From Pseudomonadales bacterium (GTDB lineage: Bacteria; Pseudomonadota; Gammaproteobacteria; Pseudomonadales; Azotimanducaceae): a stretch of DNA of 64,000 nt. Location of the stretch: assembly GCA_965116935.1 (NCBI GenBank), contig OZ220737.1, forward strand, positions 1,011,686 to 1,075,685. Reading direction: 5' to 3'. Shown here piece by piece: positions 33,917 to 62,331 of this stretch. Made by a program: the position numbers and the translations under genes. Numbering within the stretch: the stretch's first letter is position 1; each line of letters opens with the position of its first letter. The notes beneath the pieces are model-generated. The model was given only the letters and a program-made list of their open reading frames with translations. It made no database searches and was not told the DNA's origin.

Positions 33917-34170
33917 CGGCGCGATGGAGGGCGGGACGCCCTCCCTCCGAGGGCACGGCAGGGGGGACCCTCCCTCAAGGTCCGCGCAGAGTCGTCGCGG
34001 GCGCTGGCTGGTCGCGTCCTCGGAGGGAGGGCGTCCCGCCCTCCATCGCGCCGCCAGGCGCGCTTTCCTTGCGTTCCGAGTCGTCGCGGGCGCTGGCTGG
34101 TCGTGCCTTCGGAGGGAGGGCGTCCCGCCCTCCATCGCGCCGCCAGGCGCGCCGTCCTTGCCTCCCGCGG
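33917..34170. repeat. Cluster of REP-like palindromes (ggagggcgggacgccctcc family) between trpG and trpD
   Basis: cgatggagggcgggacgccctccctccga at 33921-33950. Inverted copies lie at 34021-34050 and 34109-34140. An ~90-bp unit is duplicated in tandem. Confidence 0.85.
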
Positions 34171-35243: not shown

Positions 35244-36046
35244 CCTCCCCCGACACGCCGGACATCCTCCGCCGCATCCTCGAGCACAAGCGCGCCGAAG
35301 TGGACGAACGCAAGGCGAGCTGCCCGCTCGCCGCCCTTCGCGCCAAGCTCGAGTCATTGCCACCGCCGCGAGGGTTTCGCGAGGCGCTCATCGACAGGGC
35401 CGTTGCCGGCAACCCTGCCGTCATCGCCGAAATCAAGAAGGCTTCCCCCAGCGAAGGCGTGATCCGCGAGCCCTTCGATCCACCCGCCATCGCCGCCTCC
35501 TACGCTGGCGCCGGCGCCGCCTGCCTGTCGGTCCTCACCGACGAACGCTTCTTCCAAGGCAACGACAGCTTCCTCCCCGCCGCCTGCGAAGCCTCGGGCC
35601 TGCCCGCCCTGCGCAAGGACTTCATCGTCGACCCCTGGCAAATCCCCGAGTCCCGTGCCTTGGGCGCAGACTGCGTGCTCCTCATCGCCGCCGCCCTCAC
35701 GGATGCGGAACTCACCGACTGCCACGCCCTCGCCACAGAACTTGGCATGGACGCCTTGGTGGAAGTCCACGACCGCACCGAACTCGACCGCGCCCTCAGC
35801 CTCGACGCGCCCTTGATCGGCATCAACAACCGCAACCTGCACACCTTCGAGACTCGCCTCGAAACCACCTTGGAGCTCCGCCCCCACGTGCCGTCTCACG
35901 TCACCCTCGTGACCGAAAGCGGCATTCACAGCCGAGAAGACATCGCCCTCATGCGCACAGCCAACGTCCACGCCTTCCTCGTCGGCACTGCCTTCATGCG
36001 CGAGGAAGACCCCGGCCAAGCCCTCTCACGCCTCTTCGACAACTAG
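35240..36046 (+). CDS. trpC: Indole-3-glycerol phosphate synthase
   Basis: GTGA overlap with the trpD stop. ILRRILEHKRAEV, VIAEIKKASPSEGVIR, LRKDFIVDPWQI, IGINNRNL. Confidence 0.9.
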   Translation: MTSPDTPDILRRILEHKRAEVDERKASCPLAALRAKLESLPPPRGFREALIDRAVAGNPAVIAEIKKASPSEGVIREPFDPPAIAASYAGAGAACLSVLTDERFFQGNDSFLPAACEASGLPALRKDFIVDPWQIPESRALGADCVLLIAAALTDAELTDCHALATELGMDALVEVHDRTELDRALSLDAPLIGINNRNLHTFETRLETTLELRPHVPSHVTLVTESGIHSREDIALMRTANVHAFLVGTAFMREEDPGQALSRLFDN

Positions 36047-36077
36047 CATGCTGTCGGACTTCCCAGCGGGACGGCCT

Positions 36078-36187
36078 CCGGAGGGAAGGCATTCTGCCTT
36101 CCCGATGCGCCGACAGGCGCATCTCGGCAAACGAGGGGTCACCGCGCCTGTCGGCACGCCAAGCAAGGCAAAATGCCCTCCCTCCGC
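36078..36187. repeat. Nested palindromic REP-like element (ggagggaaggcattctgccttccc family)
   Basis: Same family at 52886-52975 and 62177-62300. Outer arms are ggagggaaggca../..tgccctccctcc and the inner hairpin is cgccgacaggcg../..cgcctgtcggc. Confidence 0.85.
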
Positions 36188-36213
36188 AGGGCACACGCCC
36201 ACGTTACGCTGTG

Positions 36214-36405
36214 ACGTTGCGACCGCGCCTCGGACGCTGGCGCGCCCGGTGGAGTCCGGCTATGATGCGGAAGTCACCGGGGGCGCGGCAGTAGAGGCGA
36301 CCGCACACGGCCTGTTCCGTGAGTCCTCGCGCCCGAACCGATGCAGGCTCTCGGTTCAGAACCGGTGACTCAATCCCCGCTCTTGGCGTAGATCAGCCGG
36401 CCTCG
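36214..36405. ncRNA. Candidate structured non-coding element, copy A (family unknown)
   Basis: Aligns with 50382-50590 in the same orientation. Helices are preserved by compensatory changes (see findings). A 2-nt indel rules out a shared reading frame. Strand of any transcript is undetermined. Confidence 0.45.
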
Positions 36406-36476
36406 CCGGACCCTGTTGACGGCGCTGCGGGGGCGACGCCGGCATGGGCTAACCCACAAGCCACACCGGAGCCAAC

Positions 36477-37106
36477 ATGAAAGTCCTCGTCATCGGCGCC
36501 AACGGCAACACCGCCACGCGCCTCGTCCGCCGCCTCGCCGAAGGCGCACACGATCCCATCGCCATGATCCGCCACCCCGGCCAGCGCCCGAAGTTCGACG
36601 ACCTCGGCGTGCCCACAGTCCTCGCCGACCTCGAATACCCCATCGACCACGCCGTGGCCGGCTGCGATGCCGTGATCTTCGCCGCCGGGTCCGGCGGCCA
36701 CACCGGCAAGGACAAGACGGTGCTGGTGGATCAACTCGGCGCCATCCGCTCGATGGTGGCCGCCCAGGTGGCTGGCGTCGGGCGCTACATCATGCTGAGT
36801 TCCATCGGCAACGACATCCACAGCACCTCACCCATCGCCCACTACCACAAGGCCAAGGCCCACGCCGACAACCACCTCATGGAAACCGACCTCGACTACA
36901 CCATCGTCTGCCCCGGCGGCCTCACCGACGACGAAGGCACAGGCAAAGTGGCCATCAGCCAAGACCTCCATGGCCGCGGCCTGACTTCCCGCGAAAATCT
37001 CGCTGAAACGCTGGCCCTGTGCCTCGACCACGAAAACACCATCGGCAAGCGCTTCAGCCTCCTCGACGGCGAAACACCACTCGCCGAGGCATTGCGCGGC
37101 GTGTAA
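36477..37106 (+). CDS. NAD(P)H-binding atypical SDR (YhfK/NmrA-like)
   Basis: MKVLVIGANGNTATRLV (Rossmann GxxGxxG) ... YHKAKAHAD. Confidence 0.75.
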   Translation: MKVLVIGANGNTATRLVRRLAEGAHDPIAMIRHPGQRPKFDDLGVPTVLADLEYPIDHAVAGCDAVIFAAGSGGHTGKDKTVLVDQLGAIRSMVAAQVAGVGRYIMLSSIGNDIHSTSPIAHYHKAKAHADNHLMETDLDYTIVCPGGLTDDEGTGKVAISQDLHGRGLTSRENLAETLALCLDHENTIGKRFSLLDGETPLAEALRGV

Positions 37107-37179: not shown

Positions 37180-40100
37180 TTCAATGAGGCCGCCTTCAAG
37201 CGAGGGCGGATCGCGACAACCCATTGTTTTAACGTACAAAAAGCGTCGACATGCGTCGCTCAAACGAAGGCCGGAGTCTGACTCCGGCGACAACCGAGAG
37301 AGTACGTCGTGTACGCGCGCGTGGAGCGGGGCGCTCAACGAAGGCCGGAGTCTGACTCCGGCGACAACCTGCTCGAGCGCGGTCAGGCACACCGCGACAG
37401 CCTCCGCTCAACGAAGGCCGGAGTCTGACTCCGGCGACAACCGGCAGTCGACCCAGGTGCCCAGGGAGGCGGAGGTGTCGCTCAACGAAGGCCGGAGTCT
37501 GACTCCGGCGACAACACGCTCCGGCTCCGACGACGCGCGACGTCCGCCGAACGCTCAACGAAGGCCGGAGTCTGACTCCGGCGACAACAACAACGCCCTC
37601 GGAGAACATGGCGCCGGTGAAGGCCGCTCAACGAAGGCCGGAGTCTGACTCCGGCGACAACCGCCACGCCGCGCACGCGGTCGCACGGCGGCGTGAACGC
37701 TCAACGAAGGCCGGAGTCTGACTCCGGCGACAACCTTGATGCGGGAGTCGTAGGCGACCAGCTTCGGAATCGCTCAACGAAGGCCGGAGTCTGACTCCGG
37801 CGACAACGCGCCTCGGCGCGCACCTTGCCCCACCGAGCCGTGTTCGCTCAACGAAGGCCGGAGTCTGACTCCGGCGACAACCGCGCCCACCGAACAGGCG
37901 CGGGCGCTCTATCAGGCGCGCTCAACGAAGGCCGGAGTCTGACTCCGGCGACAACAACCACCTTGCCGCCGACCAGCAGCTCAACCTTGTTGATCGCTCA
38001 ACGAAGGCCGGAGTCTGACTCCGGCGACAACGCGGCTGGAGATCGAGGCCGCCATAGCTGGATCCGTCGCTCAACGAAGGCCGGAGTCTGACTCCGGCGA
38101 CAACCCCTCGCCATGCTGGCCGCCCTTGTGGCTCTGTTGAGCGCTCAACGAAGGCCGGAGTCTGACTCCGGCGACAACACGTCCTCCGCCTGAGGGACGC
38201 CCGCCCTGTGCGACGCCGCTCAACGAAGGCCGGAGTCTGACTCCGGCGACAACCTGGAAAGCGCGCACGCCGACGCGGTTCGCCACCTCAACGCTCAACG
38301 AAGGCCGGAGTCTGACTCCGGCGACAACGCGACGATCTCGACGACCGCGTGGTGCAGGTGCCGGTCGCTCAACGAAGGCCGGAGTCTGACTCCGGCGACA
38401 ACGCGGTTGAAGCCCCCGGACTCGAGGGCGGGGAAGGCCGCTCAACGAAGGCCGGAGTCTGACTCCGGCGACAACCCGACCGTTCTCGAAGAAGTCCCGA
38501 AGCTCGTCACGCGCTCAACGAAGGCCGGAGTCTGACTCCGGCGACAACGTCCTCCAGACCCGTGCAGGACAGGAAACGCTTGGTCGACGCTCAACGAAGG
38601 CCGGAGTCTGACTCCGGCGACAACCCTTCGTGACCACCACCGCCATGCCCTTCGCCTGGTCCGCTCAACGAAGGCCGGAGTCTGACTCCGGCGACAACTG
38701 GGATGGGAGCCAGCGGGCACCGTGTCCTGCGTGTCCGCTCAACGAAGGCCGGAGTCTGACTCCGGCGACAACCGCCGCAGATCGCGCAACTGATTGCCGA
38801 CCACTTGGGCCGCTCAACGAAGGCCGGAGTCTGACTCCGGCGACAACTGCTCGATGATCCAGCCGCCCACGGCCATGCTCGCGGGCGCTCAACGAAGGCC
38901 GGAGTCTGACTCCGGCGACAACGTCCTCATCGGGCACCGCAACCCCACCGCAGCTCCACGCCCGCTCAACGAAGGCCGGAGTCTGACTCCGGCGACAACG
39001 CCTCCCGGGCTACATGGCGCGCGAGCACGCCCACTGCGCTCAACGAAGGCCGGAGTCTGACTCCGGCGACAACTTTGCGCCGGTGCGAGCGGGAGATGCC
39101 GGGGCGGTCCGCTCAACGAAGGCCGGAGTCTGACTCCGGCGACAACCCGCCCCCACAGAGCAAATCTAGGGCGTTTGCCGCCAACGCTCAACGAAGGCCG
39201 GAGTCTGACTCCGGCGACAACCCTTCGGGGCAGTCTCCTACGATCCGCAGCACGGGTTCGCTCAACGAAGGCCGGAGTCTGACTCCGGCGACAACGCGGT
39301 TTGTGGAGCGTCGGGAGCGTGGGCGCAGGTGGCGCGCTCAACGAAGGCCGGAGTCTGACTCCGGCGACAACCTCCCACGGCTGGTGGGCGTCCACGCTCA
39401 CGTTGACCGCTCAACGAAGGCCGGAGTCTGACTCCGGCGACAACCACCACCGCGTCCACGCACTCGAGCTCGCCGGCACCGCTCAACGAAGGCCGGAGTC
39501 TGACTCCGGCGACAACCGCCACCACAAAGCCCACCTTGCGACCATGCCCGGCCGCTCAACGAAGGCCGGAGTCTGACTCCGGCGACAACCGGACGTGGCC
39601 ATGCACGTGCGCGTCAGCCGGCAGCCGCGCTCAACGAAGGCCGGAGTCTGACTCCGGCGACAACTGCGACGCCGGCGTATGACTCGATACCCGCGTCTGC
39701 GCTCAACGAAGGCCGGAGTCTGACTCCGGCGACAACCAGGACGGCGCAAGCGGCATCGATGGCGGTTGCCGCGCTCAACGAAGGCCGGAGTCTGACTCCG
39801 GCGACAACCCCCGTGCAGGTAAACGTCCACGTCTCCGACGTGCTCCGCTCAACGAAGGCCGGAGTCTGACTCCGGCGACAACCATCAGGGGCGGTACGGT
39901 GTGGCCGACGAGTGGCTCGCTCAACGAAGGCCGGAGTCTGACTCCGGCGACAACCCGGGGTGGGAGCACGTGCACGAGTGCATCGGGCGGTGCGCTCAAC
40001 GAAGGCCGGAGTCTGACTCCGGCGACAACCGGCCAAGCCTGGCAGCCACAAGGCCGCGCTCGAGCACGCTCAACGAAGGCCGGAGTCTGACTCCGGCGAC

Positions 40101-41289
40101 AACTCCTCGGTCGAGATCGCGCCCTCGCCGATCGCCAGACGCGCTCAACGAAGGCCGGAGTCTGACTCCGGCGACAACTCGACGGCCACCACCGGCCAGT
40201 CCGGCTGCAGCTCGTCGGTCGCTCAACGAAGGCCGGAGTCTGACTCCGGCGACAACGTCCGCGATGCGCGTGTCGCGCTCGGACGTGCCGGCCGGCGCTC
40301 AACGAAGGCCGGAGTCTGACTCCGGCGACAACGCCTTGACCTGGTTCGCCACCGCCACCGTGACGCCCGGCGCTCAACGAAGGCCGGAGTCTGACTCCGG
40401 CGACAACTGGGCAGGCCGGGTGGCTTGAAAGGCGGCGTGCCCGGCCGCTCAACGAAGGCCGGAGTCTGACTCCGGCGACAACATTTGCGGCGGTGCGAGA
40501 GGGAGATGCCCCGGCGATCCGCTCAACGAAGGCCGGAGTCTGACTCCGGCGACAACCCGTAGCGGCCAGTGGCGCTAATGTCGATGAAGGTGACCGCTCA
40601 ACGAAGGCCGGAGTCTGACTCCGGCGACAACTCGTCCGCTGCAAGGGGCACGGCAAACGCTTGGTGCGCTCAACGAAGGCCGGAGTCTGACTCCGGCGAC
40701 AACCGGCTGGCCAAGCCGAATCCTTCCACTTCCGCTGTGCCGCTCAACGAAGGCCGGAGTCTGACTCCGGCGACAACCACTCCGATATGGCGCACGTGGC
40801 GCGCGTTCGTGGCCGCTCAACGAAGGCCGGAGTCTGACTCCGGCGACAACGCGGGGGCGGAGGGGCTGGTCGGGGTGGTCACGACCGCTCAACGAAGGCC
40901 GGAGTCTGACTCCGGCGACAACGGGTCACGGCACGCCGCTCAAGGAAACGATCAACCGCGCTCAACGAAGGCCGGAGTCTGACTCCGGCGACAACGCTCG
41001 ACTGCGAAATGTCCTCTCGCTTCACGCTGTGCGCTCAACGAAGGCCGGAGTCTGACTCCGGCGACAACCCTCCGAGCCGAGCTCGACGCCCTCGATCACC
41101 GTGACCGCTCAACGAAGGCCGGAGTCTGACTCCGGCGACAACGCTCGATGATCCAGCCGCCCGCCGCCAGCGTCGCGGGCGCTCAACGAAGGCCGGAGTC
41201 TGACTCCGGCGACAACCGTCGGCTCGGCCGCCGGCCCGTCGATCCCCGACGGCGCTCAACGAAGGCCGGAGTCTGACTCCGGCGACAAC
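37180..41289 (-). CRISPR. CRISPR array with 55 well-conserved 37-bp repeats plus one degenerate terminal repeat; spacers 36-38 bp
   Basis: The + strand repeat is cgctcaacgaaggccggagtctgactccggcgacaac, with period ~73. I counted repeats line by line (first at 37257 with a 1-nt insertion, last ending at 41289). A degenerate copy lies at ~37180-37220. Orientation is inferred from the cas2-proximal leader and the distal degenerate repeats. The transcribed repeat is GTTGTCGCCGGAGTCAGACTCCGGCCTTCGTTGAGCG. Confidence 0.97.
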
Positions 41290-41479
41290 TGCTAATTCGC
41301 GGAAAGCGGCATCCGGCGCCTGTCTTCCAGCCAAATCTGCCGCGTTGTGCGGCCTGCGACGAGCAAAGTGCACCAATCTTGGGCGAGAAACGGCCTAGAA
41401 GCTGGCATTGGTTGCTGACGAGCGACCCGAAAGATGCCATTCCGGTACGCGTACAGCGAATCACCGAGGGTTCGCAGCG
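41290..41479 (-). promoter_or_regulatory. Probable CRISPR leader
   Basis: 190-bp non-coding gap between cas2 and the best-conserved repeat, less GC-rich than its surroundings. No promoter was mapped. Confidence 0.6.
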
Positions 41480-41770
41480 CTACAGCAGCCAAGGATCGCC
41501 GAGCGTATGTGCGCCATCTCGTCCAATCCGTAGCGTGGCGTCCTCCACTCCACCCGGGAAACGGTAGATCAGCACTGAGTCGACATTGTGGTCAACAATG
41601 TCGCGGATGTCGCCGATCAGCCTCGCCAGTCGCGTCTTCGAGAGCCTGCACTCGAACACTGAGTACTGCACTCGTTGACCGTACCTCTCGCAAACATCCG
41701 CCATTCGCCGAAGCCGTATCGCACCCGTTGTCTCGGTGTCTGCAATGTCGTATGTGACCAGGACGTCCAT
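41480..41770 (-). CDS. cas2: CRISPR-associated endoribonuclease Cas2
   Basis: MDVLVTYDIADTETTGAIRLRRMADVCERYGQRVQYSVFECRL..: ferredoxin-like Cas2 signature, 96 aa. Confidence 0.92.
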   Translation of the reverse strand: MDVLVTYDIADTETTGAIRLRRMADVCERYGQRVQYSVFECRLSKTRLARLIGDIRDIVDHNVDSVLIYRFPGGVEDATLRIGRDGAHTLGDPWLL

Positions 41771-41774
41771 GCAT

Positions 41775-42791
41775 TCACGCGAGCACGAATGGTGGGTACG
41801 CTGATAGGTCTCCACGCAAGTGACGGGCGAGCAGGGTCGCCTGCACTGACGGAAGAGCCCAGCGGCCCACAACATGCCCAAGTACCCGATGTGGCACCTC
41901 TGTCTCCTTGTGTTCCTCCCATGCACGGATCAACGCTTCCCTGCCGGGCTCGGTGAGATACACGGCCCCACCGGGCACCGTTTGAAAGCTGTCTCGCGCC
42001 ACCTGTCGTCGGCGCACCAGCGACACCACGAAGCGGTCGGTTAAGGCCCGCAGCTCCTCTGCCAAGTCGAGGGCGAGCGAAGGGCGACCCGAACGAGGGC
42101 GATGGAAGAATCCCATTTGATAGTCTAGACCTACGCTTTCGAGGGCGCCGATACACTCGGCGACAAGCAAACCGTAGCAGAAGCCGAGTGTCGCGTTGAT
42201 CGGGTCGCGTGGGGGACGCCGAGTCCTCGTCGAGAACCCAAGTTCAGCCGATTCGACCACTCGACCCATTGCCCTGAAGTAGATCCTCGCTGCGTCCCCT
42301 TCGACTCCCCGCACATGGTCTGGCGTTTGTGCGTCCTCCAAGCGAGACACCCGCGACCGGATCTGGTCCGCGCGCCGTGCGAGGGCCTCGCTCTCCTCAT
42401 GGTCCTGCTCATCCCGCGACCACCTGCCCACAACCCGGGCGCTGCTCTGGAGCTTGGCGGCTACCACTGCCTTGGCCATGCGGAGCGCACGGAAGTCGTC
42501 CTCGACGACGCGATAGAGCGCCATGCGCAAATGCACATTGCCTCCGGTCGCCCCGTTGACCATGAAGCGAACCGCGCCATTGCGGCGCAGTGCCGCTACG
42601 CGAACACCCCGTCCTACGCAGGCGTCTATCGCCTGCATCGTCATCTGGGCTCCGCCAAGCAGCACGACGGCGTCGATCCCCTCGAGTGGCACGCGCTGCT
42701 TGCCTTCAGGCCGAGAGACGATGAGCGATCCACGCCTGTGGCCAATTCGAGCCTTGTGGCTGCGAACGTAGAGCGTGCTCAGGTAGCGCAT
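41775..42791 (-). CDS. cas1: CRISPR-associated endonuclease Cas1
   Basis: MRYLSTLYV..GSLIV ... RRPPRDPINATLGFCYGLL ... LDYQMGFFHRPRSGRPSLALDLAEELR. 338 aa. Confidence 0.93.
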   Translation of the reverse strand: MRYLSTLYVRSHKARIGHRRGSLIVSRPEGKQRVPLEGIDAVVLLGGAQMTMQAIDACVGRGVRVAALRRNGAVRFMVNGATGGNVHLRMALYRVVEDDFRALRMAKAVVAAKLQSSARVVGRWSRDEQDHEESEALARRADQIRSRVSRLEDAQTPDHVRGVEGDAARIYFRAMGRVVESAELGFSTRTRRPPRDPINATLGFCYGLLVAECIGALESVGLDYQMGFFHRPRSGRPSLALDLAEELRALTDRFVVSLVRRRQVARDSFQTVPGGAVYLTEPGREALIRAWEEHKETEVPHRVLGHVVGRWALPSVQATLLARHLRGDLSAYPPFVLA

Positions 42792-43396
42792 CCAAACACT
42801 GCTTCGGACATGTACCGCTCGATTCTGCGCGACGTGCTTGTGGGGCCGGGGAGACAGTGATTGAAGAGTTGACACTCCTTGCAGCGGCCATCGTTGACGG
42901 CGACCGGCAGGTCGCCCGTCAACAGTTGTTCGCGAATGGCCGCGACGATGCCGTTCAGTTGCTCTCGGAGCGAAACCGTGAACGCCACTGCGACGCGTCG
43001 CCTCGGGCCTCCATACCACACGCTTCCCGAGGGGATCTCGACATCCAGCATTTCTTCCAAGCACAGCGCCTGTGCGCAGAGCTGTAGGTCGGCCGCGAGC
43101 CCGTGTCGCGTACCGGATTTGTACTCCACAGGGTGAATGTCATGGCCCACGACCTCAACGACATCGGCTCGACCGGTCAAACCGAACGTCTCCGACCAAA
43201 GAGGAATCCCGCGGAGGACAAGCTTGCCGCGTTCGGTGCGGTGTTTTCCGCTGTCCACGCGACGATGCGCACGGGTGCCGCGGATGGTGTGCGCGTTGTC
43301 GCTCCAAACTCCGTCGCAGTGGATCAGAGCGCATTGTCGCGGGCAGTAGGCGAAATGCTCGATGGCAGAAATCGGCACTGGCGGATCAGGAGTCAT
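42779..43396 (-). CDS. cas4: CRISPR-associated exonuclease Cas4 (stand-alone)
   Basis: ISAIEHFAYCPRQCAL, RADVVEV..HPVEYKSG (D..ExK), C-terminal CKECQLFNHC cysteine cluster. 205 aa. Confidence 0.88.
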   Translation of the reverse strand: MTPDPPVPISAIEHFAYCPRQCALIHCDGVWSDNAHTIRGTRAHRRVDSGKHRTERGKLVLRGIPLWSETFGLTGRADVVEVVGHDIHPVEYKSGTRHGLAADLQLCAQALCLEEMLDVEIPSGSVWYGGPRRRVAVAFTVSLREQLNGIVAAIREQLLTGDLPVAVNDGRCKECQLFNHCLPGPTSTSRRIERYMSEAVFGCAT

Positions 43397-44286
43397 AGTT
43401 GCTCGGCGCCAATGGCGCGGGTTGGATCGGCCTGCGCCCGACTCCGATAGCGGACGCTGCGCCATCCGGCATGCACTCCTGTCGATCGCCATGTGGCACG
43501 CTGCCAAGGGTCCCAGATGTCCATAAGGGCGTCGATGCCCCATGCGTCAAGCGGTTGCGCCCAAGCGGGCCATAGGAACTCTCGCGGATCGCGGCTGCCA
43601 GGAAGGCTGCGCCAAGCCCTCTGCCTCTCGTCTGGATTGCGGTCCTTTCGCTCGGCACCCCTACCGCGCATGGGAAAAAGCGCCAAGCCAAAGAACGCCA
43701 GCAATTCAACGACGGGTTCAACCCAACGATCCGTCTTGTCCGCGAGCGATCCGAGACGGCTCTGGTCGAACCCCAAGCCGTTATCTTGAACACGGCTCGC
43801 CACTCCCGTCAGCGATGCATGAAGGCGCGGTCGAGATAGCGGGCCAACCTTCTCATGAAGCCGCAGGACGCGATAGTGAAGCCATTTGATCTTCCCCGGG
43901 CCAGCCGCATCAAAGGGCGCATGGGCAACTTTGCCATGTTGATCCACGCTCAGGTCTGTCAATGTGGAGGACAGGGCCCAAGAATGCTGCGTGCTGCGCG
44001 CTGCAATTGCCCGCTCACGAAAGTCATCCACCGTAACCTGACGTTCCAGCTTGCAGGCATTCCGCCAGACGGCGGCTATCGGCAAATCGTCCAGCAGTTC
44101 CCGTGTCGGCCACGACTCCGCCAACGCATCGACCGGGTCGAGCGACTCGGCGGAAAGAACGGCAACCGAAGTGCCTTCCGTTGTCCAATGCAGCCGCAAA
44201 CGCGGATCCAGCACCGTAGCACCCACGGCAGCCAACCAGCCATTGACCCATCCGGCCGGCAGACCGGCGCATACCAGTTCGCTCAT
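43393..44286 (-). CDS. 297-aa cas-operon protein of uncertain identity (possibly Csb3 / reduced Cas8u-like)
   Basis: ATGA overlaps with both the cas3 stop and the cas4 start. No motif I can assign. Its position between cas3 and cas4 is where I recall Csb3 in some I-U/Dpsyc-type loci. Confidence 0.4.
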   Translation of the reverse strand: MSELVCAGLPAGWVNGWLAAVGATVLDPRLRLHWTTEGTSVAVLSAESLDPVDALAESWPTRELLDDLPIAAVWRNACKLERQVTVDDFRERAIAARSTQHSWALSSTLTDLSVDQHGKVAHAPFDAAGPGKIKWLHYRVLRLHEKVGPLSRPRLHASLTGVASRVQDNGLGFDQSRLGSLADKTDRWVEPVVELLAFFGLALFPMRGRGAERKDRNPDERQRAWRSLPGSRDPREFLWPAWAQPLDAWGIDALMDIWDPWQRATWRSTGVHAGWRSVRYRSRAQADPTRAIGAEQL

Positions 44287-47096
44287 TCGTAGTGTTCCTC
44301 AGAGTCCTGAACGCCTGCCGAGACGGCGTGGTCGGCGCGAATGACAATCGCCTCCAATAGCGCAAGGCCCCAAGGACCCAGATGTGCGTCAAGCCTTCGG
44401 AACCTGGCTGGCTGGCTCCAGTCAGTGAGTGCTAGGTCGGCGCTCGCCTCCACGGCCATGCCTTGCACTGTGCCCAGCACCGTTGCCAATGTACCGTCGT
44501 CTGCTGGCTTGACCAGCGGCCGGCCCTTTCCGTGGTGGCTTATCACCAAATGCACCAGCAGGTCTCGTTCGATGGGCTTGCCCCAATCGGGGCTGCGTTC
44601 GAGCCACGCGCGCACTAGCCGGGCGGAGAGGTCTTCGTGACGACCACCGCGGGGCCAGCCGGCTCGACGTCGCTTCGCCTCCCACAGATGTCTTGGCGTG
44701 TCCGACTTTGCGAGTAGCGGGCCTGTCGGTTGGTCTTCGGACGAAAGCCACCGCTGAAAGCGTGCGTCCGCCTTGCCGATGTCGTGGAGCGTAGCCGCAA
44801 GTTTGACGGTTCGCTGTAGGTCCGGCGGCAGTCCGAGCCGGTCTGCGATCGCGCCTGCTCGGTTGCCGACGGAACTGCCGTGTCGATCCAGTTCCACCGC
44901 CGCAGGGCCGAGCGAGAACTCGTCAAAGTCATCGGTAGGCGGCTCGCTCACCGAGTGCGGCAAGCGAAGGCGCGGCACTTCATTGCGGGGTTGCAGGACT
45001 CGCGGGGTCAATGCGTGCGTATAGGTCGCCCATTCCCCCTGCTCCCAGCCGCTCGGAGCTGGCGCTTCCTTGAGGGCGGCCAAGAACTCCCGCACGGCCT
45101 GCTCGCGGTCCGACTCATCGAAGTCGTCTGCGTCGTCAACGTCGCCCAACGCCGCCGCGATCCACTGTTTCGCCCCCAAGCCGCACAACCGTTGAATGGC
45201 CTGTGCATCCAATGGCAAGCCCAAGTTTCGTAGCGACACATCCTCGACAGGGGCCGAGGAGGATGGGTTCCATCCATAATCGTCCATCAATCCCCGGTCC
45301 GTCGCCAACACGAGCCGGTCGCCAGGTCGCAGGTCAGCGACTGGCACGGTTTCGACTGTGACGCCATCCGAGGTGATCCGGCACACATCCTCCTCCTCCG
45401 CGAAAACCTCACGCAGTTCCCCGAGGGGTACATCAATCGCCTCGCGGTCACGCGGTCGAGGCCAAAGCCGTGTGCCGGGACCGGGCACATGGATGCGCCA
45501 AAGCACTGAAGCGGCGAACTGGGGTGCAGCGATGCCGCTGAAGTAGGGCTCTACGGGTGCCTCCCCGTCTGGAGGTGTGGTGGTCTTTGTCCATTCCCAC
45601 AGGAGTCCCGGCAACACTTCCGGTGCTCGGCCTGGATCGTCGCCCGGCGGTCCCAAAACGGCTTTCACGACCCGCGGCGATAGGTCAGTGTTGTCGTTCT
45701 GGCCGCACGCTGCTTGCAGTCGCTTCAGCACGGTCGCGGGCTCCGACCCATACACGGGCCAAGACTCGGACGTACCCTTTTGCCCGCGTTGCTTTGGTGG
45801 AGGCAAATGAATGTACGTTGCGCGAGCGTGCGGGAAACCACCGAGGCGATTGAGTCGCCCAAGCCGCTGCGTTAGGGCGCGGACGCCACATTGCTCGGTT
45901 ACGAGATACTCCGCATCCAGGTCTGCACCCACTTCGAGCGTTTGCGTAGCCACCACGACAAGGTGTTGTGTGCGTGTTTGCGCATCCCTGCCTGCCGCCA
46001 TGCCCGTGCCCGGGTCGAGAACTCGCTGGCGGATGCGCTGTGCCTCTCGCTCCCGCATGAGCCCGGTCAGCAGCAGAACATCGGCATGTGCAAGTGACGG
46101 TGTCTTCTGCAAGCGCTCGAAGGTCTCCCGCGCCGTGCGGGGAGAGTTGGCAAACACGAGGCAGGTGACCGGTCTGGAGCTTGCCACGATGAGATCCAGC
46201 GCGGCATCGGCGAGCAACTTGGCCGCGTCGCCACGACTCTCCACGCGAACTCGCGTCGGTTTGGCCGCATCGAGACGTTCGCGTACGACGGCATGGGCCT
46301 CGTCGTCCGCGTCCAGACAGAACCGATCGGATGCGCCGGCATCGCCGGTGGCGGTGAGCGCCACGAGTTGCGGTCGCGCACGCCCTCCGCCGAGGTATTC
46401 CCGCGCTTGTGGATGGCATTCGGCAAGCGCTGGGACAAGAGCCTTCAGGTGGGGGACAAGATGCGCCTCGTCGAGCAGGACCAGACTGTCCGTCCCGGCC
46501 ATGGCGGCATCGACCGAGCGCCTTCGAGAACCGTAGCCCCGGAACAGCAACCGGGACCCATACATAGGCAGAGTGCAGAGAATGATGGTTGGACGTGCCG
46601 CATCGGTGGGGGAATGCGAGGAGATGCCACCGCGTAGGGCGATGACGTGGAGCGGGGCCGCGCTTGTATCCACCCAAAACGAACGCAGTCGGTGAGCCAT
46701 CCGTTCGAGGACTTCTCGCGCCGAGCCATCGAGGTCGTCGGACGCCGGGTCGCTCAGCGCGGCGGCGATTCGTCGTGCGTGGTCGGCTGTAGAGTCCACC
46801 AACAAACGACGGTTGACCACCCACCAGATTCGCGTGGGTGCCGTGCGATGGGCTGGTGCCCGATCCGCTTGCGATGCCAGCCACCAGACGGCAATGTCCA
46901 GGCATGCGGTCTTGCCAAGCCCGGTCGGCACGCCGATCTCGCCCCTCCACCGCCCTTCCTTGACGACGAGATCGGCCAAACGGACCTGCCACGGAAACGG
47001 ATCGCGTCGGTTGATGGCGCGGTAGAACTCCGAGAACGTCGGCAAGGCAGGCAGCCCATCCGATCCTGCGTCGCCGGTTTGCACGTCGTCAGTCAT
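44283..47096 (-). CDS. cas3: Cas3 helicase with a C-terminal HD nuclease domain (type I-G/I-U style)
   Basis: VPTGLGKT (motif I), VLLDEAHL (motif II), and C-terminal LAATLHDIGKADARFQ and VISHHGKGRP (HD). Start at MTDDVQ (ATG 47096), overlapping the csb2 stop by 8 nt. Confidence 0.88.
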   Translation of the reverse strand: MTDDVQTGDAGSDGLPALPTFSEFYRAINRRDPFPWQVRLADLVVKEGRWRGEIGVPTGLGKTACLDIAVWWLASQADRAPAHRTAPTRIWWVVNRRLLVDSTADHARRIAAALSDPASDDLDGSAREVLERMAHRLRSFWVDTSAAPLHVIALRGGISSHSPTDAARPTIILCTLPMYGSRLLFRGYGSRRRSVDAAMAGTDSLVLLDEAHLVPHLKALVPALAECHPQAREYLGGGRARPQLVALTATGDAGASDRFCLDADDEAHAVVRERLDAAKPTRVRVESRGDAAKLLADAALDLIVASSRPVTCLVFANSPRTARETFERLQKTPSLAHADVLLLTGLMREREAQRIRQRVLDPGTGMAAGRDAQTRTQHLVVVATQTLEVGADLDAEYLVTEQCGVRALTQRLGRLNRLGGFPHARATYIHLPPPKQRGQKGTSESWPVYGSEPATVLKRLQAACGQNDNTDLSPRVVKAVLGPPGDDPGRAPEVLPGLLWEWTKTTTPPDGEAPVEPYFSGIAAPQFAASVLWRIHVPGPGTRLWPRPRDREAIDVPLGELREVFAEEEDVCRITSDGVTVETVPVADLRPGDRLVLATDRGLMDDYGWNPSSSAPVEDVSLRNLGLPLDAQAIQRLCGLGAKQWIAAALGDVDDADDFDESDREQAVREFLAALKEAPAPSGWEQGEWATYTHALTPRVLQPRNEVPRLRLPHSVSEPPTDDFDEFSLGPAAVELDRHGSSVGNRAGAIADRLGLPPDLQRTVKLAATLHDIGKADARFQRWLSSEDQPTGPLLAKSDTPRHLWEAKRRRAGWPRGGRHEDLSARLVRAWLERSPDWGKPIERDLLVHLVISHHGKGRPLVKPADDGTLATVLGTVQGMAVEASADLALTDWSQPARFRRLDAHLGPWGLALLEAIVIRADHAVSAGVQDSEEHYE

Positions 47097-48480
47097 CGGA
47101 TGGTACGCACAGGCCAAGCCCTCGTTGGCGACCCGCGCCGATCACTACGGGCCCCGCAACCGGCTCAGCGAACTGGATCTCGAAGTGGGAATACGGAAGC
47201 GCTGGCCGATCCGGGCGATTGACTTCTACCGGCATCAAGTTCACTCCACCCGATACGAGTGGAAAGCGGGACCGGCGGAATGCGATCGGTTCCGGTAGCC
47301 TAGCGTGCTCGCACCATCGGGTGACGTCCGTCAGGCGAACCTTGCCCCGTCGCTCGTGAAGGACGGGGAACGCTGATACCCACCTGCGCGACTGTTGCAG
47401 CCAACGGTCCGGGTTGGCTGCCCAAGGTCGTCGCTCGTCCTGCCGAGGGGAAACGGCCACCTCTACGCTCGCGCCCTTCAGCACCCGCACCGCGAAGGTC
47501 GCATCGCGGACCTTCGCCATCGTCATTTCGTCAGACTTCGGCGGCAACCACAGTGCCAAGCCGTGAATGCGGCCCCGTGAGCGCGGGAAGCCGACGTCAG
47601 GCAATGCCAAGAAGCGAGCAAGGTCGTAGCCTTTCCGTTCAAACCCGTGGCCGTGCAGGACCGCCGGCGGCTCGCCGTGAATGCGCTGGTAGTGGCTGAG
47701 CACGGCTTCCTTGAAGAGGGTCGTGAGGGCAGACACGCGCCGTCCCGAAACCACCGGACGGATGTGCAGCCACGCGACGATGCGACCACGATCCTCTTCG
47801 GGTTGCGAGTCGGGTGTGCGATAGCGTGCTGAATGCACGAGTGCAGGGAACTGAGAACGCGCAACAGATGCTCCTCGCTTGGTCCACCCATCGAAAACCC
47901 GATCCAAGAGGTCTGTGTCTCCCGGTCGAGTCACATTCATCGTCGCTTCGCCGTCGGGGTCGGGCGTGAACGTATCCGCTGGAAGGCGGGAAGGCATTTC
48001 CGTCGCGACGCGAAGGCGCACCGGCGAGTCGGACGTGCCAAGATACCCGACGCGTGCGGCACGAACACGGATTGACTGCAACGTGCCGGGCGGGGGCGTC
48101 TTCTCCCACTCGTACACGACAACCGGATCTCGAGGTGCGACTCGCACGCCTGGCCTGTGCAATGCGCCTACACGGGCGACGTATTCCTGGTGGGTGTTCT
48201 TCCTGCGCTCCCCCACCACGACAAACCGTCCTTGTTGTGACTGATGCCATGCCAGCGAATGTGCATGGATGGTTGGGGGAGGCAGTGCCTCTAGCCACAG
48301 AAGTTCGCTGCCATCGGTCGCACGTGTGCGACCCCGGGTCCCGTCGGCCGCAACAAGAGCAGCGAACAACCGCGCCGGCGACGGCGGCCACTCACCACGC
48401 TCTAGGCGCCCGGTGTTGGCTGTCCCGTCTGGGTCGCCACGGAAAGTGCCGTGGAGCAGCTCCACGCTGATGGTGAACAT
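47089..48480 (-). CDS. csb2: Csb2-like Cas5/Cas6-fusion RAMP protein (type I-G/I-U)
   Basis: Start at MFTISVELLHGTFRGDP...WPPSPARLFAALV, the N-terminus I associate with the Csb2/GSU0054 family. 1-nt overlap (TGATG) with the cas7 stop. Confidence 0.65.
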   Translation of the reverse strand: MFTISVELLHGTFRGDPDGTANTGRLERGEWPPSPARLFAALVAADGTRGRTRATDGSELLWLEALPPPTIHAHSLAWHQSQQGRFVVVGERRKNTHQEYVARVGALHRPGVRVAPRDPVVVYEWEKTPPPGTLQSIRVRAARVGYLGTSDSPVRLRVATEMPSRLPADTFTPDPDGEATMNVTRPGDTDLLDRVFDGWTKRGASVARSQFPALVHSARYRTPDSQPEEDRGRIVAWLHIRPVVSGRRVSALTTLFKEAVLSHYQRIHGEPPAVLHGHGFERKGYDLARFLALPDVGFPRSRGRIHGLALWLPPKSDEMTMAKVRDATFAVRVLKGASVEVAVSPRQDERRPWAANPDRWLQQSRRWVSAFPVLHERRGKVRLTDVTRWCEHARLPEPIAFRRSRFPLVSGGVNLMPVEVNRPDRPALPYSHFEIQFAEPVAGPVVIGAGRQRGLGLCVPSDD

Positions 48481-49679
48481 CAGTCGTCGAGAGCCGGCCA
48501 TGTGGCGACGATCGCCTTGCGTAGGTTCTCCTTGGGCGAAAGCGCCGTCGCCTCTGGAACCCAGCCGTCGAGGGGTACGTCCACAGACTTTGCATGTTCT
48601 CGCGCCGCGCCAAGCAATTCCGCCGTAGCTGTCGCGCCCCCAAGGTCGCAAAGCTCGTCTCCTTGGCCACTGAGCCAAGTCACGGTGGTGGCCCGAGGGC
48701 GCAAGTCTGCACCTGACCGCAACGCGAACCCGCTACCGAACGCAAGCTGATGAGCATGTAGGCCCAAGGCCACAAGAAGTGCCCGCACTGCCGCATCGGC
48801 TCCAGCGTCCCCAGCGCCGAGCCCTATGCGGCGCAACTGCGCGAACGATACGGTAGCGCGTTGCGTGACCGACGCGAACGAAATGGCCGCCGCGGGAGCG
48901 TCCGCGCCCATGAAGGGCACTTGGCCATGCCCGATTTCCGAGAGCTTGTCCTTCTTCCCACCCTCGATCTGGCCGGCTCTGCCCACGTCCCAATCTGTAC
49001 GATCGTTTGGATTGGAGGTGACTGGCTCGTCGGTGCTCAGGTTCAGGGCGTCCCCCTTCAGGCCGAGCACTTTGGTTTCCGTCGATGCCGGTTGCCAACC
49101 CACGATTTCGGATACCCAGGCCCGAGCGTGCTTTGTGTTCTGGCGATCCTTGCCCAAATGGGACTGCCAGAATCCATACAGGAGCGCTTGCGGGAACCAC
49201 GCGACCAAGGGGCCACAAGCTTGCGCCGTGGCGCCGAAGATGGCTTTGCCGACATCCGTCTTCATGAAGTCCTTACCGTCGAGTTCGGAGTCGCGCAGGT
49301 ACGCATCCGCGTTGCGATGGGGAAATTCGAGGCTCGAGAGCGACTTGGGCAGGTGTGCCGGCAAGTGAGGCATGGTCGCGGAAAGGTCCAGCCTAAACTC
49401 CGGAATCGACATCGACACCCGGTGCAGGCGCAGGGCGTGCTCCAGGCGGTTGGCTTGCGAAGGCACGTTATCGATGACGATGACAGGCGTCGGCTCAGGG
49501 TCCTCGGCCGATCTCCAGCGACGATCCTGCTGGTAGTTGCCACCCTCGTACACGGCAGGCTTTACCGGCCCACCGGCCCCAGCCAACGGCTCCAGTTCCG
49601 CATCAATGCGGATGCCGTCGTCAAAGGAGTCGTCCGCGCAGCCAGCCAGCAACGCAGCCAAGTCAATCTGTCTGGACAC
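48480..49679 (-). CDS. csb1: Csb1-like Cas7 (type I-G/I-U RAMP backbone subunit)
   Basis: GTG start with GGAGAGAAAGGA upstream. VPSQANRLEHAL, FPHRNADAYLRDS, LYGFWQSH and SEIGHGQVPF resemble the Csb1/GSU0053 family. Confidence 0.7.
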   Translation of the reverse strand: MSRQIDLAALLAGCADDSFDDGIRIDAELEPLAGAGGPVKPAVYEGGNYQQDRRWRSAEDPEPTPVIVIDNVPSQANRLEHALRLHRVSMSIPEFRLDLSATMPHLPAHLPKSLSSLEFPHRNADAYLRDSELDGKDFMKTDVGKAIFGATAQACGPLVAWFPQALLYGFWQSHLGKDRQNTKHARAWVSEIVGWQPASTETKVLGLKGDALNLSTDEPVTSNPNDRTDWDVGRAGQIEGGKKDKLSEIGHGQVPFMGADAPAAAISFASVTQRATVSFAQLRRIGLGAGDAGADAAVRALLVALGLHAHQLAFGSGFALRSGADLRPRATTVTWLSGQGDELCDLGGATATAELLGAAREHAKSVDVPLDGWVPEATALSPKENLRKAIVATWPALDD

Positions 49680-50032
49680 TGTCCTTTCTCTCCTGCCAGT
49701 GATTCAGGTTTGACTCCATCCTATCGCAAGCAAAGGCACGGTGGGGCCTGAGTCCGGCCACCCACGCAAGAGGGATGTCCGCTCCCGCATTGTGCACGTC
49801 AAGTTGTGCAAAGGGAGTGTCTGGTGCGCCGTTGTTTACGCGGCCCCCGCTGGCTGTCTCGTGCGGGGTTCGCTGAGGAAGGCCATGTTGAGGTAGCGGC
49901 TGGCCCGGGCCAGTTCTCGTAGGTCTCAGACGCTACATCGCGTGTTTCCCGCGCACGCGGAGCTGAACCCCGAACTGCAGGCCCCGCCGCCGGCGGAAGC
50001 GCGTTCCCTTGGCACGCGGGGACGAGCCGTGT

Positions 50033-50109
50033 CGTGAGTGCACGACAAATCGCGGCGAGATCGTACGGGAGGAATGAACCGTGTCGTGAGTGCACGACAA
50101 CTGGCGGGA
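50033..50109. repeat. Two 25-nt direct repeats, each with a 6-bp-stem hairpin, separated by 27 nt
   Basis: ga(g/a)ccgtgtcgtgagtgcacgacaa at 50033-50057 and 50085-50109 (stem gtcgtg/cacgac, loop agtg). Lies 350-430 nt upstream of the cas7 start. Confidence 0.85.
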
Positions 50110-50381
50110 TGGACGGTTGAGTTGAGGGCTTCGACAGCCACAACCCCACGGCGGGGTGGCGGCGCAGGCTGGCGTGGAGGACATTGAGCGCTCCATGCTG
50201 GACACCGACTACGACCGCTCCTTCTTCGCGTGGGAAATCCACTTCGCCGGCCAGTCGCAGGAAACCCGGTTGCCTGAAGCGCCTGAAGAAGGGCCCAGGC
50301 GCGTAGGTCGATGCCGAACGGAGGCGATTTGCCTCGGTGCCCGTCCCCATGGCCAGCAGGGAGACAAAGGGGTAAGCGTTG

Positions 50382-50590
50382 ATGTTGCGACCGCTGCGAC
50401 CGCACAGACGCTGGCGTGTCCGGGAAAGTCCGGCTATGATGCAAATCGAGTCGCCGCCGGGGGGTGCGGACGAGAGGCGGGCGCACACGGCCTGTTCCGT
50501 GAGAGTCCTCGCACCCCGAGCCATGCAGGTTCTGGCTCAGCACCGGCGGCGCACTCAATCCTCTGCTTGCCGGTACAGCAGCCGGCCGGG
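50382..50590. ncRNA. Candidate structured non-coding element, copy B
   Basis: Homolog of 36214-36405 (see findings). Its first ~20 nt contain an extra gcgaccgc repeat. Confidence 0.45.
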
Positions 50591-50710
50591 TGTGGGTTCC
50601 CGGCACACGCGCCGATGAACCCGACACCGCCTCTCGTCCTTGCGGATGCCGTGCACCAGACGCTCGGACGACCGCCCGAGCACTTGCAGCCTGCCGACGG
50701 TGATGGATAG

Positions 50711-50947
50711 TTGCACTCCTTGGGAGGCGTAGGAGTGCTTGTGGTGGATCCGCTTGGTCGAAAGCTGGGGCAAAAGCCGGAACTGGACAGCATTGAGGAA
50801 GCCAATCTCTACATCGACCGGAACGGTGGCCTGTACGTCGATCCGGATGAGTTGGTTGCCAGCAGGAAGTTCGGACGCCTATTGGAAGACGCTGCCCAGT
50901 TGGATCTGTCCAATCTGGATCGCGAGGAAAAGCCCGCAAGAGACTAG
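50711..50947 (+). CDS. Small acidic hypothetical protein
   Basis: Protein-like composition (..LGQKPELDSIEEANLYIDRNGGLYVDPDELVASRKFGRLLEDAAQLDL..). A GTG near 50735 with an upstream GGAGG is a plausible start. The stop TAG is supplied by the first bases of the adjacent MITE. Confidence 0.35.
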   Translation: MHSLGGVGVLVVDPLGRKLGQKPELDSIEEANLYIDRNGGLYVDPDELVASRKFGRLLEDAAQLDLSNLDREEKPARD

Positions 50948-51101
50948 GGCGTGTTCACACTATGCGCTCATACAGTCCATCGGACAGCGTGGCCCTTGGG
51001 GGCCTCGTTTTCGAACGGTTGTCGCCAGGACCTTGGTAGCTGTCGCCGGTTGATCCGGGTGGTTTTTCGGCGACCAGAACGCTAGTGTGAACATGCCCTA
51101 G
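50944..51101. mobile_element. MITE-like element, copy 1 (158 bp, 18-bp terminal inverted repeats)
   Basis: Left end is ctagggcgtgttcacact. The reverse complement of the right end is ctagggcatgttcacact (1 mismatch). The internal sequence is shared with 52838-53076. Confidence 0.75.
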
Positions 51102-52837: not shown

Positions 52838-53076
52838 AGGGCGTGTTCACACCATGCGCTCACACAGTCCATCGGACAGCGTGGCCCTTGGAGGGAAGGC
52901 ATCCTGCCTTCCCCGCACGCCGACAGGCGTGCCTGACGGCACGCAGGGAAGGCAGGATGCCTTCCCTCCAAAGGCGGCCTCGTTTTCGAACGGTTGTCGC
53001 CAGGACCTTGGTAGCTGTCGCCGGTTGATCAAGGTGGTTTTTCGGCGACCAGAACGCTAGTGTGAACACGCCCTAG
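52838..53076. mobile_element. MITE-like element, copy 2, carrying a nested REP-like palindrome
   Basis: Same ends and core as 50944-51101, with a ~80-bp ggagggaaggcatcctgccttccc...palindrome inserted at ~52886-52975. Confidence 0.75.
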
Positions 53077-57842: not shown

Positions 57843-57954
57843 GGAGGGAGGGCGTCCCGCCCTCCATCGCGCCCGCAAGGGTGCGCATCCTGCTGGTGCG
57901 ACGAGGGGTCTGCGCGCCTTGCGGCGCGATGGAGGGCGGGACGCCCTCCCTCCA
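57843..57954. repeat. Inverted pair of REP-like palindromes (REPIN-like)
   Basis: ggagggagggcgtcccgccctccatcgcgc (57843-57872) and its inverse gcgcgatggagggcgggacgccctccctcc (57925-57954). Confidence 0.85.
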
Positions 57955-62176: not shown

Positions 62177-62300
62177 TTTGGAGGGAAGGCATTCTGCCTT
62201 CCCTGGCACGCCGACAGGCGTGCGCCCACCAACTCCGCGGAACGCTCGCAGAACGCGCCTGTCGGCGCGTAGGGAAGGCAGAATGCCTTCCCTCCAAAGG
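62177..62300. repeat. Nested palindromic REP-like element (same family as 36078-36187)
   Basis: tttggagggaaggcattctgccttccc ... gggaaggcagaatgccttccctccaaa, with an inner cgccgacaggcg/cgcctgtcggcg hairpin. Confidence 0.85.
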
Positions 62301-62331
62301 CCCCAAGTCCTGTGGTCAAGGCTACAGACCG

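Follow-up and report, generated by a model that had tools for sequence, protein, structure and literature searches.

Orphan copies of a candidate structured RNA motif linked to PBECR2 reading frames of Mu-like phages in a Pseudomonadales genome

In prophage regions of Bacillus subtilis, txpA/RatA and bsrG/SR4 are type I toxin-antitoxin (TA) systems with convergent antisense RNAs that overlap at the 3' end. For the PBECR domains of Mu F-type (MuF) head proteins, RNA cutting or binding is a matter of prediction only, and we know of no substrate or partner. These domains have been described as predicted RNases, or as RNA binders in Mu F itself, within injected virion proteins (PMC5512222). MuF toxin genes normally have an immunity gene directly downstream (PMC5576092), and RNA immunity for MuF toxins is described in neither of these two papers. 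Here we analyse a 64,000-nt stretch, called the window below, of contig OZ220737.1 from the metagenome-assembled genome of an uncultured Pseudomonadales bacterium, in which a non-coding element is present twice, as copies A (36214-36405) and B (50382-50590). The two are very probably orphaned copies of an undescribed structured RNA motif of ~100 nt that comes from Mu-like (pro)phage DNA. That the motif works as an antitoxin or antisense RNA towards PBECR2 is a tentative proposal, possible but doubtful, and on the explanation as a whole, which comprises identity, origin and mechanism, our confidence is evenly divided.

The repeat is real and not a chance match, since A and B align as true homologues in blastn (74% over 211 nt, E 6e-27) and the 21-mer GCACACGGCCTGTTCCGTGAG is found at these two sites only, with 0.01 occurrences expected by chance. 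When both regions were read and aligned, all of the identical blocks listed in a first-pass annotation of this DNA were present, as was the 2-nt indel that it had noted after CCGTGAG; the two helices that it had placed at 36281-87/36328-34 and 36335-41/36351-57, and the nested CACGG/CCGTG hairpin and GAGG/CCTC pairing, are likewise real in the sequence. Absent from its list was the outer closing helix, P2 (A 36272-80/36362-70; B 50452-60/50543-51), and the length of 170-190 nt that it had given to the element has to be reduced, the conserved folded unit being ~100 nt:

36272-36370, + strand: RNA core of copy A; covariance-model matches of 80 bits (model R1) and 68.8 bits (independent model R2)
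Helices of copy A: P2 36272-80/36362-70; P3 36281-87/36328-34; P5 36306-10/36317-21, loop CCTGTT; P4 36335-41/36351-57, loop TGCAGGCTC
50452-50551, + strand: RNA core of copy B; covariance-model matches of 91.7 bits (R1) and 82.7 bits (independent R2)
Helices of copy B: P2 50452-60/50543-51; P3 50461-68/50510-17; P5 50486-90/50497-501; P4 50518-23/50533-38

With the segmentation checked against the sequence, 28/28 pairs of copy A are Watson-Crick, as is every pair of copy B. The fold is modelled as a three-way junction of P2, P3 (plus a 3-bp P3b), P5 and P4, in which P2 closes a long arm, made up of P3, P3b and the invariant hairpin P5 (CACGG-CCUGUU-CCGUG), together with a second hairpin, P4, whose loop (A)UGCAGGYUC is invariant across the family. 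The two invariant loops, CCUGUU in P5 and UGCAGGYUC in P4, are mutually complementary (GCCUG/CAGGC), which suggests a loop-loop kissing contact, one that receives no support from covariation because the loops do not vary. Between A and B, 7-8 paired positions differ, all of them compensated; as the copies have diverged with zero helix mismatches in either, the fold was under selection in the meantime. Single-sequence folding is significant for the ~100-nt core only (z -2 to -3, both strands), whereas that of the full regions of 210-226 nt is not (z -0.75 to -1.3).

The family so far consists of 10 copies, namely A, B, one in each of the loci L033, L038, L039, L040, L046 and L049, and two in L050, and the eight copies outside the window all come from metagenomic loci. 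The third homologue, L033, was found by way of a 20-mer of the most conserved hairpin (one match in the Joint Genome Institute metagenomes); it keeps the invariant hairpin and the loop ATGCAGGCTCT, while its other helices differ in sequence and are still complementary. Homologues of the G protein of L033 led to L038, L039, L040 and L046, which have the element in the same gap but, compared with L033, as the reverse complement relative to the flanking genes, and a search with the upstream open reading frame (ORF) and the covariance model gave three further copies, one in L049 and two in L050.

Seven of the copies were segmented by hand into P2, P3, P5 and P4, each being checked against the real sequence, and contain 183 Watson-Crick pairs, 4 G-U pairs, 0 A-C pairs and 4 mismatches. 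In the alignment of these seven, 97.9% of the cells are paired and 9 pairs have changed on both sides (0/500 shuffles; slid controls 34-50%), and in the model-fitted alignment of all 10, 98.5% of the cells are paired and 10 doubly changed pairs are distributed across all four helices, values that 0/500 shuffles reach and for which slid controls give 34-49%. RNAalifold independently recovers the same helices, plus the 3-bp P3b. When model R2, which was built from the non-window copies only, was run on the 64-kb window with filters off, its matches at E < 0.1 were these two copies and no others, both on the + strand: A with 68.8 bits (E 1e-10) and B with 82.7 bits (E 3e-13). The proposal of a non-coding structured element is thus borne out by a fold that is kept across 10 copies, and so is the proposal that its helices are preserved by compensatory changes, the covariation holding over the same 10. 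The further suggestion that the element matches no known RNA family also stands: Rfam 15 at the gathering score gave 0 matches in the whole window, both copies included, and 0 in six loci with other copies, Rfam scans by E-value around A and B returned sub-threshold noise only, and ARAGORN found 0 tRNA or tmRNA genes in the window.

As far as these searches reach, the family looks narrow and is known from metagenomes only. The exact 20-mer CACACGGCCTGTTCCGTGAG has two chance matches in GTDB genomes, none in IMG/VR viral contigs and one true match in metagenomes, its final G excluding most family members, which read …GTGAC or …GTGAT. The 24 matches of the 16-mer AGTCCGGCTATGATGC in viral contigs are all chance, a 19-mer of the conserved hairpin matched a lone hairpin only (L048), and a gapped two-block pattern gave zero matches. 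No copy was found in IMG/VR by exact-pattern scans, the relatives of the G protein (gpG) there being too distant and without the motif; blastn of A against plasmid and phage collections gave no match, and with cultured Mu-like phages there was a match to the MuF N-terminal domain only.

In every full locus a distance of 0-11 nt separates the motif from the stop of an upstream ORF with PBECR2 as its last domain. The motif is convergent with this ORF in 9/10 copies, and a Mu G-like gene usually comes next. The ORF encodes a Mu F-type minor head protein that has PBECR2 at its C-terminus (Pfam PF04233 + PF18810). PF18810 was detected on the ORF directly adjoining the motif in L039, in L049 and twice in L050, and homologues of these PF18810-bearing ORFs lie upstream in L033, L038 and L046. 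PF04233 and PF18810 are joined on one protein in motif-bearing L049, which thus has the MuF domain fused to a C-terminal effector domain as in MuF polymorphic toxins, and the same pair is found in L041-45 and L047. In L049 the motif is flanked by MuF-PBECR2 and G, and in L033 by a truncated ORF on one side and a Phage_tail_S (Mu G-like) gene on the other; L050 has two motifs, each 3 nt behind a solo PBECR2 ORF, and is without a G gene. Across the family the partner ORFs have 119-439 aa, with or without the MuF domain. The gap of 125-155 nt contains no conserved reading frame, its indels not being multiples of 3, and instead of a small immunity ORF it is the Mu G-like Phage_tail_S gene that comes after it. 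This arrangement fits a structured RNA that would fill the slot of the immunity gene behind MuF-PBECR2.

MuF-PBECR2/motif/G modules recur as isolated survivors among host genes (L033, L039, L040, L049), and addiction-type modules tend to persist in this way. In L039 (3788-7258), a cassette of PBECR2, motif and G (5428-6492) is flanked by two fragments on the opposite strand, one with DUF6531 and one with RHS repeats, and it looks as though an Rhs toxin gene had been the site of insertion. Positions 1887-2804 and 4428-5346 of L050 form a 940-bp duplication of 88% identity, which gives two modules of PBECR2 end and motif at a distance of 2.5 kb. As the genes called next to these copies differ in strand, at least one of the calls must be spurious, and an ORF 'X' in this position, which has no homologues, was rejected as what looks like an antisense artefact.

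Beside the two copies in the window, what is left of such an ORF is its end:

36370-36449, - strand: remnant of a MuF/PBECR2-type ORF, last ~25 codons and stop (TGA = 36372-36370), …RRRPRSAVNRVRRGRLIYAKSGD*; tblastn against the L033/L038 ORFs, 50-55% identity
50555-50587, - strand: remnant of the same ORF type, last 10 codons and stop (TGA = 50557-50555), GRLLYRQAED*; tblastn

The tblastn matches lie directly 3' of the cores on the minus strand (A 36449→36373; B 50587→50558), that of B reaching 80% identity with L033 across 10 aa and 70% with the L039 PBECR2 ORF. Alignment at the DNA level with the 3' ends of the L038, L039 and L046 ORFs agrees with this reading of both remnants. The weaker 3' similarity to ~36405/50590, which had been taken as part of the element, is instead this protein-coding remnant on the opposite strand, and the 3' blocks CTCAATCC and CAGCCGGCC are best read as the stop and 'GRL' codons (…GRL(L/I)Y…D*) of a decayed MuF/PBECR2 ORF. 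The statement that conservation is not at the protein level consequently holds for the ~100-nt core and fails for these two blocks, the conservation of which is, or was, at the protein level. By tblastn, the window contains no G, MuF, portal or other phage gene beyond the stubs; the small ORFs by B (50739-51053, 50711-50947, 50555-50773 and 49799-50524) have no Pfam match, and the first two have no PHROGs match. A and B appear to be orphan copies of the F-G intergenic module of a Mu-like phage, in which the motif has outlasted its ORF, being intact although the PBECR2 ORF has decayed. As the perfect fold has been kept, the orphans may still be functional in the host.

Which strand would be read can be approached through the wobble pairs. 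The ten copies have 15 G-U pairs against 1 A-C pair in the sense of the window + strand, and this 15:1 excess points to an RNA from that strand. Pair 33-62 is G-U in 7 copies, G-C in 2 and A-U in 1. The consensus fold is also more stable in this sense in 10/10 copies (mean -42.2 vs -40.2 kcal/mol), and the same sense is antisense to the PBECR2 ORF in 9/10. Furthermore, a TAnnnT hexamer (TATGAT, TATCAT, TATGCT, TAAGAT or TAAGGT) stands 5-11 nt upstream of P2 in 10/10 copies, in sequence of roughly 70% G+C, and is a putative promoter element; in L050 a TTGCGG stands before it at a spacing of 17-18 nt. The window copies have it as follows:

36261-36266, + strand: -10-like hexamer TATGAT of copy A, 5 nt upstream of P2
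50435-50440, + strand: -10-like hexamer TATGAT of copy B, 11 nt upstream of P2, a box as in the other copies

According to the explanation we prefer, the motif would be made as a small RNA from the window + strand, with its start just after the -10-like TAnnnT box. It would be transcribed convergently with the PBECR2 gene and act in the phage on that gene or its product, either as a cis-antisense RNA overlapping the 3' end of the mRNA of the predicted RNase, or by binding and neutralising the predicted PBECR2 RNase as an antitoxin- or immunity-like partner.

Several observations weigh against this explanation. The family is small, with 10 copies from ~8 lineages, and the alignments were fitted to the structure. 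The fold is nearly strand-symmetric, which would allow a role in the mRNA sense, and 7/15 of the G-U pairs come from one alignment column. A promoter scan gave no full sigma-70 site, and the promoter and terminator scans together gave no convincing or general -35 box and no terminator, the -10-like hexamer being the only such signal. In L033, the whole unit including its TATGCT box is flipped between homologous flanking genes and is co-directional with the ORF. Finally, MuF-PBECR2/G pairs with a distant G (55-59% identity: L041-45, L047) carry unrelated sequence in the gap, so the motif is not universal for PBECR2. As to the flip, the upstream ORF of L033 has lost ~100 residues that correspond to the PBECR2 core, and we therefore read the flip as a rearrangement in a decaying locus rather than a programmed inversion. 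Two of the gaps with other sequence have structure of their own: the MuF-PBECR2/G gap of L045 (4878-5000) folds strongly into a three-way structure with an 11-bp closing helix (z -3.7), and that of L047 (3863-4000) has two copies of a GGTGGCTAAAGGCCACGCCTCGG hairpin unit.

The near symmetry of the fold leads to the alternative that survives best, although we regard it as unlikely: that the other strand is the functional one, and that the motif is a cis-acting structure of the polycistronic F-G late mRNA, placed just after the F stop codon and serving in processing, stability or translational coupling, or else as a target or autoregulatory site of the PBECR2 RNase. It would account for the location of the motif inside a co-directional gene pair without a terminator signal; the reverse-strand fold is almost as good (-40.2 vs -42.2 kcal/mol, z -2 to -3 on both strands), and other F-G gaps are structured too, as in L045 (z -3.7). 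The ratio of G-U to A-C pairs, 15:1, nevertheless favours the opposite strand, and on the mRNA strand L046 would have two A-C mismatches in P4; the unit of L033 is flipped along with its TATGCT box, and the L050 modules and the window copies exist without a G gene.

Rather improbable is an independent, moron-like phage gene for a small RNA, with a target unrelated to PBECR2 and an adjacency that is an accident of lineage. The unit is indeed self-contained, consisting of a -10-like box and a closed fold, and could stand in either orientation, and the surroundings of gene G are known to harbour accessory genes in Mu-like phages of Pseudomonas. An accident of lineage is, however, hard to reconcile with a motif that lies 0-11 nt from a PBECR2 stop in 10/10 copies, including those at the solo PBECR2 ORFs of L050 and both orphans.

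A role at the level of DNA, with P2 as the inverted repeat of an invertible switch, of a recombination site or of a site that folds as single-stranded DNA, has very little probability in our view. P2 would provide an inverted repeat of 9-15 bp, the P5 stem is palindromic, and both orientations are found between homologous flanking genes (L033 vs L038/39/46/49), yet the flipped copy is 1/10, stands in a decayed locus and has a flip that includes a box outside P2. The three further helices covary, which sites in double-stranded DNA need not do, the G-U pairs are asymmetric between strands, and no recombinase is consistently linked, the only one nearby being at L046. That gene (1361-2305 of L046, a short contig) encodes a tyrosine recombinase (Phage_integrase, E 2e-20) and follows immediately downstream of the G-like gene.

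Copy A stands between trpC and a gene of the NmrA-type short-chain dehydrogenase/reductase (SDR) class (36477-37106), in DNA that close relatives of this genome do not have:

36046-36448 or 36047-36449, no strand: 403-nt insertion, between the trpC stop (TAG, 36044-46) and 'TAAcccacaag…ATG' of the SDR gene; blastn colinearity with L005 breaks at 36045/36449
36073-36190, no strand: long (~120-nt) imperfect palindrome of a multi-copy family resembling repetitive extragenic palindromes (REP) or miniature inverted-repeat transposable elements (MITE), not part of the motif; blastn

The insertion holds this REP-like hairpin, copy A and the ORF remnant. A gap of 24 nt separates the trpC stop from the SDR ATG in the loci L005, L007 and L008, whose SDR proteins are 95%, 92% and 90% identical, and these close relatives are without copy A. 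A riboswitch or leader for the SDR gene was rejected on the same ground, as the SDR gene of the relatives has no such leader in its 24-nt gap. The palindrome has other copies in the window at 62180-62302, 52890-52975, 34105-34150 and 57901-57953, and many in L005 and L008; in Rfam it gives nothing but noise below threshold, against hairpin models of (plant) miRNAs.

The position of A, in an insertion relative to close relatives and beside a genuine multi-copy hairpin repeat, is what an ordinary interspersed selfish repeat of REP/MITE type might show, but we give this reading hardly any credence. As the first-pass annotation had implied, the element is not of the high-copy REP/MITE kind: the 64 kb contain two copies, ~250 kb of related loci have none away from PBECR2 sites, elsewhere it occurs at PBECR2 ORF ends only, and scans of three public collections for exact 19/20-mers from the best-conserved hairpin of the motif found almost nothing. 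Nor were terminal inverted repeats or a clean target duplication seen, the ends of the 403-nt insert sharing only a ragged CATGC match, and the motif brings the decayed ORF end along.

Downstream of the SDR gene, a second insertion relative to L005 (37073-56245, 19.2 kb) holds CRISPR-Cas, B, and Uma2 and Fic genes:

37257-41293, - strand: CRISPR array, ~55 copies of a 37-nt repeat (+ strand CGCTCAACGAAGGCCGGAGTCTGACTCCGGCGACAAC), between A and B, directly after the SDR gene
41480-49679, - strand: type I-U (I-G)-like cas operon: cas2, cas1, cas4, 297-aa gene, cas3, GSU0054, GSU0053; Pfam

Copy B lies ~700 nt beyond the first cas gene, within the 19-kb defence island. That A and B are duplications of attachment-site (attL/attR) type left by integration of the CRISPR-Cas island is barely conceivable and effectively refuted by the colinearity with L005: they are direct repeats that bracket the SDR gene and the CRISPR-Cas locus, but they are only 74% identical, they belong to two separate insertions around an SDR gene that is native (94.9% identity to L005) and so do not form the attL/attR pair of a single island, B lies inside the 19-kb island and not at its edge, and there is no integrase. 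The ORF remnants of the two copies are separate and end at different points of truncation.

Comparison of the window with L005, L007 and L008 shows a variable defence hot spot downstream of the SDR gene. After this gene, L005 has HipA/HipB immediately, L007 a type I-E CRISPR-Cas system and L008 unrelated metabolic genes, and the window has the type I-U system and the Uma2 and Fic genes, followed by HipA. The 700 nt of non-coding DNA that precede the cas operon contain a 37-nt direct repeat pair (50019-50055 and 50071-50107, 52 nt apart, palindrome GTCGTGAGTGCACGAC), which could be an operator pair.

The 5' parts of the two repeats are a separate matter. The blocks GTTGCGACCGC and GACGCTGGCG are outside the conserved core and common to A and B only, and GTTGCGAC of the extension to which they belong is also found in L038, directly adjoining the TATGCT box:

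36214-36257, + strand: 5' extension of copy A (GTTGCGACCGC…GACGCTGGCG…CCGG-loop-CCGG); alignments, other family members being without the extension
50382-50431, + strand: 5' extension of copy B, the homologue of 36214-36257, within which GCGACCGC forms a small duplication; sequence and alignment

The extension starts GTTGCGACCG and ends AGTCCGGC, which loosely recalls the minus-strand CRISPR repeat GTTGTCGCCGG…ACTCCGGC. This likeness by eye (GTTG…, …TCCGGC) is restricted to the A/B-specific extension, the repeat GTTGTCGCCGGAGTCAGACTCCGGCCTTCGTTGAGCG having no counterpart in the motif core, and it is probably due to chance, as GTTGCG is also present in L038 and L050.

One could also speculate that the motif is an RNA immunity factor or decoy against the PBECR2 RNase injected by Mu-like phages, and that hosts keep orphan copies in defence islands, an idea that strikes us as improbable. 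The orphans on both sides of the type I-U CRISPR-Cas system would then blunt an injected PBECR2 effector, and Iyer et al. have speculated that PBECR effectors may attack CRISPR RNAs (PMC5512222). If true, this would be the first RNA-based immunity to an effector of polymorphic-toxin type, and a host counter-counter-defence.

For the explanation we prefer, a covariation-supported, strand-assigned motif at PBECR2 ORF ends constitutes a candidate RNA partner for PBECR2 that is cheap to test. Phage and defence-island genomics gain from the motif an RNA family that had no annotation, and the window illustrates that a repeat flanking a CRISPR locus can be a leftover phage accessory RNA and not an attachment site.

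Compared with known systems, the motif resembles purine-riboswitch-type junctions in having a closing helix and two hairpins whose loops are able to kiss, but its junction is almost without unpaired conserved bases, and no consistent class of gene follows it, as would be expected of a riboswitch (SDR gene, unknown ORF, gpG or nothing). With the pRNA of phage phi29 (RF00044) it shares a three-way junction, two complementary hairpin loops and a location among head or packaging genes; it differs in phage type and in that its loop pairing is invariant, and there is no match in sequence or to the model. In type III TA systems (ToxIN-like), which are also phage-linked, an RNA neutralises an endoribonuclease by binding, as the motif RNA would do, but the motif is a single unit per locus, downstream of the ORF and on the opposite strand, without tandem repeats upstream and without an Rfam match.

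With type I TA systems the motif has in common that a structured RNA of ~100-200 nt lies tail-to-tail with a toxin-like gene in prophage DNA and that the module persists in decayed prophages. Of its 10 copies, 9 converge on the ORF at a distance of 0-11 nt from the stop, and any overlap of the two transcripts is putative. Unlike the small hydrophobic membrane peptides of those systems, the partner here is the BECR-fold predicted RNase domain of a virion protein, in ORFs of 119-439 aa, and one copy of the motif is co-directional with its ORF. The MuF toxin-immunity modules (PMC5576092, PMC5512222), lastly, have the same MuF N-terminus followed by a variable C-terminal effector, with a protective partner expected directly downstream, and the orphans with their toxin 3' stub resemble orphan toxin-immunity cassettes; where those modules have a small immunity ORF after the effector, the modules described here have a non-coding structured element.

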